Virus record (IMG/VR): IMGVR_UViG_3300006153_000012
Coordinates: 14,045 to 78,044 of that record
Source: a virus
Taxonomy: Duplodnaviria; Caudoviricetes
DNA: 64,000 nucleotides
Direction: 5' to 3' (one strand)
Part shown: piece after piece, positions 9,041 to 18,999 of the stretch
Layout of the letters: the number at the start of each line of letters is the position of its first letter
Numbering within the stretch: position 1 is the stretch's first letter
Program-made: the position numbers and the translations under genes
Notes under the pieces: generated by a model
What the model was told of the DNA's origin: nothing
What the model saw: the letters and a program-made list of their open reading frames with translations, nothing else
Database searches by the model: none

Positions 9041-9121
9041 CATACTAATATATGTTATACTTGTGGAGAGTATAACGTCCTCTTGTGGAGAGAGGATATT
9101 GATTCCCTTGTGGAGAGGGAA
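9028..9121 (-). repeat. 3'-splice-site module copy 1 (functional): three CUCCACA-loop hairpins + AGTATG|ATATTCAAAACAA
   Basis: Plus-strand stems GTTATACT/AGTATAAC, TCCTCT/AGAGGA, TTCCCT/AGGGAA each enclose TGTGGAG; 19-mer TTGTTTTGAATATCATACT at 9028-9046. Confidence 0.9.
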
Positions 9122-9145
9122 ATTTATAATAGGAGATGTTTATTT

Positions 9146-9817
9146 ATGAAAAGAAAAATAATAAAAGTAACAATTTTGATTTTAATGTCTATTTCTATAA
9201 CTGGATGCTCCAAGGCTAATTATCAAAAGGATGAATCATATGAAACAGATATTATTGGAACATATGAAATAAATGCCGAAGCTGATTCTGATAATAAAAC
9301 TACTTATTACAAACAATATGTGTTAAATGACGATAATACATATAATTATGAAAGCAATGTATTTGGCACAGATTCAAAGTCAAGCGGTAATTACACTATA
9401 AATAATGAAACAGAAAATATTCTCATAATTGATTTTGATATTATAAATAGTACATCTACCGATGAAGAATCAGTAAATATTAATTCTGCTAAACAATACA
9501 AAAAGGTTTATAAATATAAAAATATGCTTGGTGATATAATAGAAACGAAAGAGTTGCCAACATCCGAAATGTTTAATTACATAATACCGAATAAAACAGG
9601 AGGTGGCATGATATTTACTAAGGATGGTTATTATCATGCGTGTATTGATATTGATAATTGCCAATGTGACTATGCAAAGGACACAAAATATATAAGAAAA
9701 GATAATATTATATATTTCAATATTAAAGGTTCTGGTACTGATAACTATTGGCAAATTGCAGATTATGTAATCGATGATTATTTATTTACTCCAGAACTAT
9801 ATAAAGTGGAAGAGTAG
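9146..9817 (+). CDS. Lipoprotein (cargo)
   Basis: MKRKIIKVTILILMSISITG-C lipobox; AGGAG RBS; start revised from ORF track 9020. Confidence 0.8.
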   Translation: MKRKIIKVTILILMSISITGCSKANYQKDESYETDIIGTYEINAEADSDNKTTYYKQYVLNDDNTYNYESNVFGTDSKSSGNYTINNETENILIIDFDIINSTSTDEESVNINSAKQYKKVYKYKNMLGDIIETKELPTSEMFNYIIPNKTGGGMIFTKDGYYHACIDIDNCQCDYAKDTKYIRKDNIIYFNIKGSGTDNYWQIADYVIDDYLFTPELYKVEE

Positions 9818-10013
9818 TAGTATCATTTCATTCAATCATATAAATCACGTCCTTTCTAAATATTTTTATGAGTAAGATTACTCAATAGATATCACAATAT
9901 CAATTATAATATCTATTCAATGATCTTGGCTTTGATGAAAATATGTTCTGGGTATCAAAAATATATAACTAATGATACAATAAATGTATCAATGTTTAGG
10001 AGGATATCATGCT

Positions 10014-11462
10014 ATGGCACGAAAGAAGAAAATTCTTAGTCCTACATATACAGAGTTAATTGTACCAACATATGATGCATTAAAGCAATTAGGAAATTCA
10101 GCTACTAATGAAGAGATTTATAATAAAATTATTGAAAATTTAAATTTGCCAGATGATGTAATTCACGAACCGCATGGGAAAAATTTAGGCAGAGGTGAAT
10201 TAGAATATCAACTTGCATGGGCAAGAACTTATTTAAAAAATTATGGTGTTATAAAAAGTATTAAAAGAGGTACATGGGAGATAGAACCATCTTTTATTGG
10301 AAATGTCCAATTAAATTATAGAGAAGTGATTGACTATACAGCGAATAAAAAGCAACAATTAGATAATAATGTAGAAAATAATAGTGAAAATTTTCAAAAT
10401 GAGGACGTTGATGATCTAACAGAGGATAACAAATATATTTCTGATGTTGAACAACCCGAAAATGCAAATTTATATATAAAAAGCCTGATTGACTCGTGGG
10501 AAACTAAAGATTTAAAAATACCTTTCTTTCAAAGAAAGTTTGTTTGGACTTTACGTCAAGCAAGTTTGTTTATTGAATCATTATTGTCTAATTTACCAAT
10601 TCCAGCCCTTATGTTTTATAAAGATGCTGATGACTTTCAATATATAATAGATGGACAACAACGAACAAAAAGTATTCTTTATTTTACAGGTGCAATAAAA
10701 CTAGATGAAGTTGATGATGATAATAAAAAGTTTCTAAATTTTAGATTAATCGGATTATCAGATGATAGTCCATATAAAAATAAAACATTTGCTGGACTTG
10801 ATCCTTCTATAAGAAGAAAATTATTAAACCGCACATTGCCAATAACAACAGTCAAGGTAAATGATGATAGTGATTTGCCTAAAATCTTTGAAATTTTTCG
10901 TAGACTTAATACAGGAGGTACTCCTTTAACTAAGCAAGAAATACGAAATTGTATTTGTGCAGGTAATTTTAATGAATTTCTTATTGATTTAAATAAAAAC
11001 AAAGAATGGCAATCATTTATTACCAGCGAGAACGATAGAAAAAGACAACGTGATGTTGAACTAATATTACGATTCTTTGCTTTATATGAAACATACAAAC
11101 AATATAAAAGACCAATGGATGAATTTTTAACTTTGTATTTTGATGCACACAGAGAGATTGGTGATATTGAAAAAGAAGAAAAGACTGCTCTTTTTAATGC
11201 TGTTGTTTCAGCTATATACAATAATTTAGGGAGAAGGCCCTTTCATATAAAAAATGGTTTAAATTCTGGTGTATGCGATTCTGTCATGGTTGCTTTTGCA
11301 AATAATATAAATAATATTCCGCTGGATATAAAAGATCGATTCTTTGCATTGACACATAACGATGAATTTTATAAATATTGTGGCAAAAATATTAACGACA
11401 ATGAATCTGTACAATGTAGGATACAAATTGCAACAGATTATCTTTTTGGTGATTCAGAATAA
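10014..11462 (+). CDS. Mrr_N-like winged helix fused to DUF262 (GmrSD/ParB-like) domain
   Basis: N-term ELEYQLAWARTYLK (Mrr_N-like); C-term PFFQRKFVW, IDGQQR, FRRLNTGGTPL (DUF262 motifs). Confidence 0.75.
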   Translation: MARKKKILSPTYTELIVPTYDALKQLGNSATNEEIYNKIIENLNLPDDVIHEPHGKNLGRGELEYQLAWARTYLKNYGVIKSIKRGTWEIEPSFIGNVQLNYREVIDYTANKKQQLDNNVENNSENFQNEDVDDLTEDNKYISDVEQPENANLYIKSLIDSWETKDLKIPFFQRKFVWTLRQASLFIESLLSNLPIPALMFYKDADDFQYIIDGQQRTKSILYFTGAIKLDEVDDDNKKFLNFRLIGLSDDSPYKNKTFAGLDPSIRRKLLNRTLPITTVKVNDDSDLPKIFEIFRRLNTGGTPLTKQEIRNCICAGNFNEFLIDLNKNKEWQSFITSENDRKRQRDVELILRFFALYETYKQYKRPMDEFLTLYFDAHREIGDIEKEEKTALFNAVVSAIYNNLGRRPFHIKNGLNSGVCDSVMVAFANNINNIPLDIKDRFFALTHNDEFYKYCGKNINDNESVQCRIQIATDYLFGDSE

Positions 11463-11533
11463 ATTATTAAAGGCTCATCTATTCAGATGGGTCTTTTTTT
11501 AATACTCAAAACATTTAGTTAAATCATTTGTTA

Positions 11534-11649
11534 TTGTTTTGAATATCATACTAATTTGTGCTATACTTGTGGAGAGCATAACGTCCTCTTGTGGAGAGTA
11601 GTGTTTTGCGTCATGTGGAGTGACGCTGTATCTAATTGTGGAGATTAGA
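11534..11649 (-). repeat. 3'-splice-site module copy 2: four CUCCACA-loop hairpins + identical 19-mer
   Basis: 19-mer at 11534-11552; TGTGGAG loops at 11568, 11590, 11614, 11637; two stems perfect, one paired only via G.U on minus strand, one weak. Confidence 0.9.
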
Positions 11650-11712
11650 CATTGTGTTTTGTGGATATATTTGGTATAATTTTACTAAAAATATATAATC
11701 AAGGGGATACAT

Positions 11713-17885: not shown

Positions 17886-17913
17886 TTGACAATATATGTC
17901 AGTATGTTACAAT
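17886..17913 (+). promoter_or_regulatory. Sigma-A promoter for small plus-strand transcript
   Basis: TTGACA-16 nt-TACAAT with TG extension. Confidence 0.65.
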
Positions 17914-17962
17914 ATCAATTACAGCACTCAGACTTGATTCTGTAACCACCTCCAAAAAATAA

Positions 17963-18027
17963 CTCGCCTCCACGCGAGATAGGCTTGCTCCACACAAGCC
18001 ACCGACATAGTATGATGTTCAAAACAA
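17963..18027 (+). repeat. Inverted copy of 3'-splice-site module (two CUCCAC hairpins + AGTATG|ATGTTCAAAACAA)
   Basis: CTCGC-CTCCAC-GCGAG, GGCTTG-CTCCACA-CAAGCC, then 18009-18027 matching 18/19 of the motif, in opposite orientation. Confidence 0.9.
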
Positions 18028-18049
18028 CAATGATTATCGGAGGTGGCTC

Positions 18050-18268
18050 ATGGGAAATATAATTAAAAGTGCTGTTGAGTGTGAATTTGCGTATGGGATG
18101 GTATGCGTATTAGCCAGTTTTATATTCTTTTACGCCGCCATTCGATTTGTAGTACCTTACATATATAAGATTGTATGTAAATTATGCAATACATTGGTGA
18201 AGTACAAAGATATTCACACAAAAGCCAATGTTAAGGATGTCTCGTTTGAGACAGAATTACATCGGTAA
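18050..18268 (+). CDS. Small single-TM protein (toxin/effector candidate)
   Basis: 72 aa, hydrophobic segment; GGAGGTGG RBS complementary to upstream CCACCTCC. Confidence 0.65.
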   Translation: MGNIIKSAVECEFAYGMVCVLASFIFFYAAIRFVVPYIYKIVCKLCNTLVKYKDIHTKANVKDVSFETELHR

Positions 18269-18272
18269 TTTT

Positions 18273-18303
18273 GGACTACTGGATTCCACTCTGGTAGTCC
18301 TTT
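18273..18303 (+). terminator. Probable terminator of the 72-aa gene
   Basis: GGACTAC...GTAGTCC stem followed by TTT; loop TTCCAC. Confidence 0.55.
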
Positions 18304-18999
18304 GGCTTGTCTTGTTTATATGATTCTCCGTTTCTTCCCTACGGCTAGGAGAAATCCTTACATTATTCTATTCCTTCTATAATAAGTATAGTTGCTATTA
18401 AGAAATAGAAGAGTAGCATCACTCTTTTGGTTCATGCTTATATTATTAGGCTCCACCCTAATAATATACAATCTATTTCGGTTCTATCTTCTTATCAACT
18501 CCGATAGTGAGAGTTCCAACAAATGTGTAAGACGTAGGAGATAAGATTCCTAACAGCAATTACTAACCGCTACACTCGGCAAAGTCTGGATCACTCCTTG
18601 CAGCATTAGGAATTTCACCTAATGCCACCTGCCCTGATGCTCTCTGAGATTAGCACTCATCTAGTGAGATTTCCATCCTTAAAAGGATTTCTGTACATTC
18701 TGTACGCTGTCATCTGCTCGTTATTGTCAAATATCACATTGTAACTATAGCCGTTTGTGTTGCCACTTAGGAGAGTAGTGATATTTGTATACCAACTTTC
18801 AAGACCATTAATTGCTAAATGGTGTATCCATAATGCAGAGGGATACCATATCTGCTATACTTATAAAAAGTATACGGTGGTTAATTCCACACGAGATTCA
18901 ATTGTGTATTTCACAAAGGATAATATTTAAAACTTATTCTTTGAATAAGAACCAATATTACAACAGGCATATTCGATATGAGGGATTACGTTTTACCCT
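18300..18999 (-). ncRNA. Structured 5' core of the giant intervening element (putative ribozyme) with guide sequence and GUGGAG docking hairpin
   Basis: ORF-poor 700 nt with many stems (e.g. CAAATATCAC/GTGATATTTG, GCATTAGG/CCTAATGC); guide at 18963-18974; 12-bp hairpin 18439-18468 with loop GUGGAG. Confidence 0.65.

Follow-up and report, generated by a model that had tools for sequence, protein, structure and literature searches.

This report concerns a 64,000-nt stretch of phage DNA (Duplodnaviria; Caudoviricetes), positions 14,045 to 78,044 of the IMG/VR record IMGVR_UViG_3300006153_000012, which I will call the window; its source is a 78-kb viral contig estimated to be about half complete. 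On the minus strand of the window, the gene for the tape-measure protein is interrupted by a long intervening sequence that begins with a putative ribozyme region, continues with cargo genes, and contains several modules with the appearance of 3' splice sites (acceptors). The modules carry hairpins whose stems differ and whose loops all read CUCCACA, and a hairpin close to the ribozyme core, called H, displays the complement, GUGGAG. The explanation I favor, and consider likely, is that the tape-measure gene contains a giant, group I-like intron loaded with cargo, for which the CUCCACA-loop hairpins serve as RNA tethers. The match between the loops probably ties the two ends of this intron together. 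The features on which the argument draws are collected in Table 1, where ORF stands for open reading frame.

Table 1. Features of the split tape-measure gene, its predicted intron, and the cargo. Positions are those of the window.
Feature	Positions	Strand	Basis or content
Tape-measure exon 1	19000..20970	minus	Pfam PhageMin_Tail, E=1.6e-20; 80 IMG/VR homologue loci
Intervening sequence, group I-like	9041..18999	minus	9,959 nt; 5' ribozyme region, cargo genes, 3' acceptor modules
Tape-measure exon 2	6029..9040	minus	Matches ORF downstream of the intron in L010, L011
Internal guide	18963..18974	minus	GAAUAU 18974-18969 (P10 guide), then GCCUGU 18968-18963 (P1 partner)
3' end of conserved core	18484..18554	minus	Alignment of nine cores
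Docking hairpin H	18439..18468	minus	Perfect 12-bp stem; loop GUGGAG 18456-18451
Second conserved hairpin	18324..18353	minus	UUCUCC-UAGCCGUA-(variable)-AAAC-GGAGAA; comparison with relatives
Acceptor module A (productive)	9027..9121	minus	Three CUCCACA hairpins and 20-mer; terminal G 9041
Acceptor module B	11533..11649	minus	Four CUCCACA hairpins (one degenerate) and 20-mer; terminal G 11547
Acceptor module C	16258..16305	minus	One weak CUCCACA hairpin and 20-mer; terminal G 16272
Inverted acceptor-like module D	17960..18028	plus	Two CUCCAC(A) hairpins and 20-mer with two changes
GmrSD/NsnA/PD-T4-2-like nuclease	9984-11462	plus	Pfam/PADLOC scans
Second NsnA-like protein	17810-16767	minus	Pfam/PADLOC scans
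Predicted lipoproteins (two)	9146-9817, 11713-12375	plus	Signal peptides ..ITGC, ..LLCSC; no family match

Judged by comparison with 80 related IMG/VR loci, the tape-measure gene is genuinely split. The ORF containing exon 1 (20970-18958, minus strand, 670 amino acids, or aa) encodes the N-terminal part of a tape-measure protein, and T19000 is predicted to be the last base of the exon. Two ORFs beyond the interruption, of 1004 aa (9043-6029) and 799 aa (4734-2335), match later portions of the relatives' protein; single tape-measure ORFs in relatives align first with exon 1 and, in the portion that follows, with the 1004-aa ORF. In locus L010 the equivalent of exon 2 comes directly after a gap of 1 kb, and in L011 one ORF spans both later pieces. 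The 1004-aa ORF is read from an ATG at 9043; exon 2 itself is predicted to begin with AUAUUC at 9040, so that splicing would join ...GFKNTG in frame to IFKTIRQS.... The start IFKTI.. is common to exon 2 of L011, L020, L035, L037, and L071. About 40 of the 80 loci stop within a few codons of one and the same point, ...KN(V/T)G; roughly half read straight through it. The gaps at this site range from 0.7 kb to more than 10 kb.

The intron-less state is represented by L034, which is contiguous where L038 is split. Since their flanks are identical, the fused junction is exact to the nucleotide and the insertion point is defined to the base. Other alleles contiguous through the site occur in L008, L031, L050, and elsewhere. 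The phage GenBank collection offered little by comparison: neither exon had a nucleotide match there, exon 2 had no protein match, and exon 1 had only distant protein matches, at about 25% identity, in Brevibacillus and Bacillus phages. A search for related loci with exon 2 as the lone query returned zero matches.

The ends of the intervening sequence follow the logic of a group I intron. The last bases of exon 1, ACAGGU (19005-19000), pair with the guide GCCUGU with a U.G at the splice site, and this P1 helix covaries, five variants having been found (ACAGGT/GCCTGT, GTCGGT/GCCGAC, TTCGGT/GCCGAA, GTTGGT/GCCAAC, and TGTGGGT/GCCCACA). Immediately 5' of the P1 guide lies GAAUAU, which pairs with the AUAUUC of exon 2 (9040-9035), the bases that come right after AGTATG, as a P10 of 6 nt. 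The length of P10 ranges overall from 6 to 16 nt and is 13-16 nt in L011, L029, L025, and L069. Finally, every acceptor, in the window and in 59 non-redundant modules, ends in AGYAYG, that is, with a terminal G.

The 3' end of the core was delimited by an alignment of nine cores, which includes those of L011, L029, L032, L035, L037, L039, L057, and L069. A hairpin with the loop AUCUUAUC (18552-18535) is followed by the junction UUGUUGG (18522-18516) and then by an H-type pseudoknot (18515-18484), whose helices are AACUC/GAGUU (18515-18511 with 18501-18497) and CUAUC/GAUAG (18507-18503 with 18488-18484), with the linker GAUAAGAA. Both helices show compensating substitutions in every one of the nine cores, and the linker UGAUAAGA is almost invariant. 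The order of elements around the pseudoknot is unlike the usual P7-P3-P8 layout. In addition, a conserved core motif may be the pairing partner of the five bases that precede the intron's terminal G, tentative pairs being AGCAC/GUGCU (L040), AGUAC/GUACU (L069, L025), and AGUAU/AUACU (L011); a partner for pairing of this AGYAY/RYRCU type could not be placed in the window.

The hairpins at the acceptors had been described in an earlier note, made from the letters of the window alone, as groups of three, four, and one with different stems before each 3'-splice motif, facing a perfect 12-bp minus-strand hairpin that displays GUGGAG. All of this was confirmed. Hairpin H has a folding energy of -12.0 kcal/mol. 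CTCCACA occurs 12 times in the 64 kb, as against 4.2 expected, a count reached in none of 100 shuffles. The eight copies on the minus strand (9068-9062, 9090-9084, 9115-9109, 11574-11568, 11596-11590, 11620-11614, 11643-11637, and 16300-16294) all form the loops of hairpins with mutually different stems. These fall into clusters at 9121-9054 (module A), 11649-11560 (B), and 16305-16289 (C), the three hairpins of A occupying 9121-9103, 9096-9078, and 9076-9054. One hairpin of B (B3, 11602-11584) is degenerate, with 4 bp only, and the single hairpin of C (C1, 16305-16289) pairs over 5 bp, with a predicted energy of 0. An identical 20-mer, AGTATGATATTCAAAACAAT, lies 10-15 nt downstream of each cluster, at 9046-9027, 11552-11533, and 16277-16258 (0.07 copies expected by chance). 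It holds the 3' splice site and coincides exactly with the intron end plus the P10 target. The loop of hairpin H is complementary to all eight CUCCACA loops, the GUGGAG/CUCCAC duplex having an energy of -9.7 kcal/mol. Hairpin H and its partner in acceptor A are 9.3 kb apart, with ten ORFs between them, and the 3' partner is repeated one to four times.

Whether loops and their partners change together was assessed in about 15 related phage introns, the comparison to which the earlier note had looked for a decision. They do, in at least six distinct codes. In the relatives, too, one to four hairpins with a constant loop on variable stems stand before the 3' splice site; this loop differs from phage to phage, and its exact complement is present in the 5' ribozyme region. 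One docking site is the junction at the homologous position between the AUCUUAUC-loop hairpin and the pseudoknot, a site defined by position alone. There, L035 has UUGUUUGA and an acceptor loop UCAAACAA; L037 has UUGUUUGAA and UUCAAACAA; L011 has UUGUUGG and, in three hairpins, CCAACAA; L032 has UGUGGAA and UUCCACA; and L069 has CGUUUG and CAAACG. A second docking site is the variable part of the loop of the second conserved hairpin, which is the docking sequence in L025 (GUGGAA, with the acceptor loop UUCCAC), L040 (AGUUUGAAA, with UUUCAAACU), L005, and L021. In G002 (L018/L019), the loop of a core hairpin, CUUCCAA, faces UUGGAAG at two acceptors. In most relatives docking makes use of a single-stranded junction or of the loop of some other conserved hairpin, and no dedicated hairpin serves as partner.

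The pairing was also predicted blind, by reading one side (core or acceptor) before the other side was viewed. Seven such predictions held, one of them (L111, with a pairing of only 5 bp) weakly. L020 has the GUGGAG hairpin on a different stem, and its acceptor was found to carry four C/AUCCACA-loop hairpins. From the junction UGUGGAA in L057, a CUCCACA hairpin was found at the acceptor, and from UGUGGG in L029, five CUCCACA hairpins that pair over 6 bp with one G.U. L118 gave 7 bp with one G.U, and in L049 CCUCAAACA was found. L134, picked for its odd loop AGUUUAAACA, has the junction GUUUAAAC, a match of 8 nt and a new code; the palindrome GUUUAAAC is used there on both sides. When loops were permuted among loci, the summed complementarity of own pairs (88) was reached in 0 of 20,000 trials, the rows not being phylogenetically independent. 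The mean longest complementary run was 6.8 nt for own pairs and 3.9 nt between different code classes. Because at least six codes covary and the blind predictions held, tethering of the acceptor loops to the 5' ribozyme region by RNA-RNA pairing is well supported at the level of comparative sequence.

The junction of the window, UUGUUGG, is that of L011 and lacks a partner, and the window's 5' region therefore resembles a mosaic of an L011-like core and L005/L020-like downstream parts. The sequence CCAACAA at 16428 was considered as a partner for the junction; it does not lie in a hairpin, is within a cargo ORF in antisense, and was taken as chance. The variable part of the window's second conserved hairpin (18353-18324) reads GGGAAG, and its partner CUUCCC is absent from the intron. 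L005 and L020 also have hairpin H, with a stem changed by compensating substitutions and the loop kept.

A fourth module, D, which the earlier note had not listed, lies in inverted orientation near the ribozyme region. In the tape-measure sense it presents the loops UGUGGAG (17994-17988) and GUGGAG (17973-17968) and a 20-nt complement of the acceptor box. It lies upstream of an ORF for a 72-aa membrane protein (18050-18268, plus strand), and the unit is conserved in L005 (12480-12880), L020, L023, L024, L021, and L134. In its conserved form the unit consists of the inverted acceptor (CUCCAC-loop hairpins and the box AGTATGATGTTCAAAACAAC), a ribosome-binding site, and, directly downstream, the ORF of about 72 aa. 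The leader of this antisense ORF mimics a 3' splice site, and the same DNA, in the tape-measure sense, yields extra docking loops. Those of module D are the only GUGGAG loops of the 5' region in L023 and L024, and in L021 they read UGUGGAA, in line with that phage's own GUGGAA docking hairpin.

Taken together, these elements would work as follows. In a late minus-strand transcript, exon 1 would be followed by some 700 nt of ribozyme region, by about 9 kb of cargo that is expressed independently, and by the acceptor. The ribozyme would hold the 5' splice site through P1, ACAGGU pairing with GCCUGU and the U.G marking the cleavage site, and the adjoining P10 guide would let it recognize where exon 2 starts. 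The CUCCACA loops, which lie 15-80 nt upstream of the terminal G, would make six to seven base pairs with GUGGAG loops on the ribozyme's periphery, namely that of hairpin H (18468-18439) and possibly the two of the inverted module D. The distant 3' end would by this pairing be returned to the core, where the terminal G and P10 could dock.

Several points weigh against this account or limit it. Sequence and comparison show the elements themselves, the covariation of P1 and P10 and of loops with docks, and the intron-less alleles; that the RNA splices, that the pairing forms in the transcript, and that it raises use of the 3' splice site I infer. The core is called group I-like, its catalytic class being unproven: the Rfam group I model RF00028 fell below its 50-bit cut-off on the window and on all related cores, the best score being 11.8 bits (L010), with no match at all for the window, L035, or L198. 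Neither a group I nor a group II match at threshold was obtained from Rfam for the window and its relatives, and elements resembling R and S with a covarying P7 were seen, by eye only, in the relatives L023, L040, and L111. As to the tether, the window's ancestral docking site, the junction UUGUUGG, mismatches the CUCCACA loops. The loop of hairpin H is invariant among its three examples, which covary in the stem and not in the loop. In five loci the docking site was located from the complement itself, a partly circular procedure; only the junction-site cases and the blind tests escape this bias. The earlier note's proposal of a loop-loop contact across more than 9 kb stands as base pairing backed by covariation and blind prediction, and is weakened in its choice of partner: three GUGGAG loops (hairpin H and the two of module D) compete for the CUCCACA loops in the window's RNA, and most relatives lack a dedicated hairpin. 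Hairpin H and the CUCCACA loops are the most likely pair in the window, not the only candidate. Finally, acceptors B and C carry the same loops as A, so the hairpins alone cannot select the productive site.

That three acceptors share an identical 20-mer and identical loops, with C placed just upstream of three minus-strand cargo ORFs, could also be taken as a sign of regulated choice among 3' splice sites, in the docking/selector sense known from Dscam. Full-length and short forms of the protein would then be made, or the cargo operon (15789-12709) would be placed behind exon 1. The earlier note had likened the system to such a selector, a likeness that the sequences following the acceptors do not bear out. 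Only acceptor A continues into the tape-measure protein; B gives 15 codons and C gives 29, each followed by a stop, and the poor state of hairpins B3 and C1 also speaks against regulated sites. A and B share about 65 nt (two hairpins and the 20-mer) and then diverge, and the short frames after B and C resemble the starts of exon 2 in other phages. Extra acceptors in relatives are likewise followed by truncated copies of the exon, which fits relics. In G002 there are two acceptor modules and an intron of about 18 kb (reverse strand, 15603-16850 and 20519-26173 of the joined copy), the extra acceptor being followed by a second copy of the exon 2 start, 416 codons long and 86% identical to the real one. 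In G008 (contig 48629-72159; L029, L093, L096) a pseudo-acceptor with three hairpins lies 1.3 kb upstream of the real acceptor, and use of the distal acceptor would give a predicted intron of about 23.5 kb. The truncated frames and the traces of foreign exon 2 make it most likely that acceptors B and C are relics of cargo cassettes that were captured together with the donor's acceptor, rather than regulated alternatives, and I regard selector-type choice as unlikely.

The modules might also be the boundaries of mobile cargo cassettes, akin to the attC sites of integrons, and be recombined as folded single-stranded DNA, which would account for their position around each gene block and for their two orientations. 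Four copies, of which one is inverted, do mark cassette borders; the exon 2 remnant that follows differs from one pseudo-acceptor to the next; and the paired acceptors of G002 and G008 can be counted in favor as well. However, scans of the ten cargo ORFs with Pfam and PADLOC turned up no recombinase, transposase, or homing endonuclease. The identity of the 20-mer with the intron end plus the P10 target means that duplication of the acceptor accounts for the cassette borders, and covariation of docking sequences with the core would not be expected of DNA sites. Recombination at cassette boundaries is compatible with an RNA tether as a history of how the modules accumulated; as the function of the loops it is quite unlikely.

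Another possibility is that the hairpins act in plus-strand transcripts or as DNA sites serving the cargo (insulators, terminators, or UGUGGAG loops that bind a protein), their match to the ribozyme being incidental. The modules lie in intergenic gaps just upstream of plus-strand ORFs at 9146, 11713, and 16293, the last loop is about 17 nt from TATGAT, which resembles a -10 box, and hairpins A1-A3 are slightly more stable in the plus sense than in the minus sense. Against this, hairpin B4 (GUUAUGC/GUAUAGC) pairs in the minus sense only, at -5.3 kcal/mol, its plus-sense form being disrupted (-2.8 kcal/mol, with a different structure), and the stem of C1 likewise needs a G.U pair; for these two hairpins, the earlier note's claim of G.U pairing confined to the minus sense holds. 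Furthermore, a role in the plus strand or in DNA leaves unexplained why the relatives' loops change together with a conserved ribozyme region several kilobases away, and acceptors ending in AGTACG have lost the TATGAT box and kept the hairpins. I consider this explanation very unlikely. A sigma-70 promoter for exon 2, with TCCACA 17 nt from TATGAT, was rejected as well, since the AGTACG acceptors keep their hairpins and since the loops covary with the core.

Least tenable is the idea that the complementary loops are due to chance, or are diverged copies of the P10 guide and exon 2 start, complementary by descent and unused: docks (UUGUUUGAA, UUGUUGG, UGUGGAA) do resemble the guide and loops the exon start, but the codes have diverged widely, and in coordination, from the P10 pair (CUCCACA/UGUGGAG, UUGGAAG/CUUCCAA, GUUUAAAC), they are kept in the loops of hairpins with freely varying stems, and they passed the blind tests and the permutation, which makes this highly improbable. 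The resemblance of docking sequences to the P10 guide (UUGUUUUGAA) and of loops to the start of exon 2 (UUCAAAACAA) does suggest that the tether may derive from a duplication of the P10 pair.

Beyond the tethered intron there is a bolder and rather doubtful version of it, whose three parts I advance jointly. First, loop and dock might constitute a programmable address code that permits near-limitless growth of the intron, a cassette that arrives with a matching-loop acceptor being tolerated inside an essential gene. Second, a core that the models do not recognize and that ends in a conserved pseudoknot might represent a distinct class of self-splicing RNA ending in guanosine. Third, competition among acceptors, including the mimic in the leader of the 72-aa ORF, might couple the expression of cargo or of a toxic peptide to splicing of the tape-measure RNA.

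The cargo itself is of a defense type. Besides the nuclease, the second NsnA-like protein, and the two lipoproteins, it comprises a helix-turn-helix protein, three minus-strand ORFs that have no assignment, and the 72-aa membrane ORF. The lipoprotein-type signal peptides resemble those of phage superinfection-exclusion lipoproteins. In many relatives, the strand opposite to that of the intron bears a small ORF rich in CxxC pairs (like a zinc ribbon by eye) just upstream of the acceptor hairpins, which its start and ribosome-binding site abut (L010 12400-12860, L013, L011 17560-17920, L025, L035, L040, L083, and L085).

Other interruptions of the tape-measure gene were seen. A second intervening sequence, about 1.3 kb in length (4735-6028, minus strand), appears between the 1004-aa and 799-aa ORFs. 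It carries an ORF of 258 aa (5895-5119), the C-terminal half of which looks like MazF/PemK by eye, and Rfam gave no intron match within it; L011 has a single continuous ORF across the corresponding position. The exon 1 equivalent in L011 and L012 is itself split by two more insertions (L011 10756-11943 and 12320-12862), and the tape-measure gene there thus has at least three intervening sequences. Elsewhere in the window, Rfam identified three tRNA genes on the minus strand (43115-43201, 44352-44423, and 51021-51091), and a GC-rich stretch (2001-4000, 52% GC) lies within the region of tape-measure exon 3.

The preferred account, a cargo-loaded intron whose ends are tied by RNA pairing, bears on how such introns are viewed. 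Self-splicing introns are usually seen as compact, with at most one homing endonuclease. Phages of this whole family, of gut and rumen type, would use a single site in an essential tail gene as a bay, protected by splicing, that takes in from 1 to more than 20 kb of accessory and defense-type genes. How a 3' splice site many kilobases away is found appears to be solved by a short RNA address that covaries. This may explain how phages can carry defense islands without loss of a structural gene, and the rule by which loops are swapped offers a directly testable handle on long-range RNA folding in vivo. It is possibly also a design principle for large insertions in RNA tools based on ribozymes.

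The earlier note went too far in holding that no described intron uses anything of the kind, as there are precedents. In a literature search on cargo-carrying tape-measure introns, I did not find described the combination of 10-23 kb of defense-type, multi-gene cargo within a structural gene of a phage, redundant hairpin arrays at the acceptor, several alternative docking sites, and a phage-specific code. As to the location, prophages of the Bacillus cereus group have group I introns, TMP-IVS1-3, in frame in their tape-measure genes, compact introns of types IA1/IA2 with at most a homing endonuclease (PMC2504315). They share with the present intron the insertion into a tape-measure gene, P1 and P10 fitted to the site, and the occurrence of different introns at one site, and differ from it in that multi-gene cargo, acceptor arrays, and a docking code are not described for them (PMC2504315). 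As to the architecture, the IStrons CdISt1 and BcISt1 have a 5' group I ribozyme, a large foreign insert in the 3' part, and a 3' splice site far downstream; they carry as cargo an IS200/IS605 or IS607 element that includes transposase and TnpB, and their cores are typical IA2 (PMC4227781, PMC3984707). The window's intron is like them in its 5' ribozyme, big 3' insert, and remote 3' splice site, and unlike them in carrying defense-type genes with no transposase found among its ten ORFs, and in having a core that Rfam does not recognize.

As to the pairing, three systems come closest. In exon 6 of Dscam, one docking site pairs with selector sequences in spliceosomal splicing that yields alternative functional isoforms. 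The likeness lies in a single docking sequence that faces many complementary copies beside alternative acceptors; in the window, by contrast, a single acceptor gives the full protein. Group I introns such as that of Tetrahymena have among their standard peripheral contacts the loop-loop tertiary pairings P13 and P14, reportedly described by Lehnert et al. in 1996, which join 5' elements (P2, P2.1, P5c) with P9.1 on the 3' side. Here, too, 5-7 nt of complementary sequence would join peripheral loops of the 5' and 3' sides by Watson-Crick pairs, with covariation across the family. Those pairings lie in one compact fold, whereas in the window the two hairpins do not fall within a single ribozyme fold: the 3' partner is kilobases of genes away, repeated, and next to the splice site. 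The third system is the sunY (nrdD) group I intron of phage T4, in which, as is said to have been established by Michel et al. in 1992 and by Jaeger et al. in 1993 (the latter listed among the references of PMC8628965), a long-range pairing ties the remote 3' splice junction to the core, by a single pairing over a distance of about 1 kb. In both introns coding sequence is inserted between the catalytic part and a short domain at the 3' end, and a peripheral element of the core pairs near the 3' splice site to bring it back (in the window, by prediction backed by covariation). What distinguishes the window's intron from sunY is its size, 10 kb and as much as about 23 kb in G008, its arrays of one to four redundant loops, its phage-specific code, and its several docking places.

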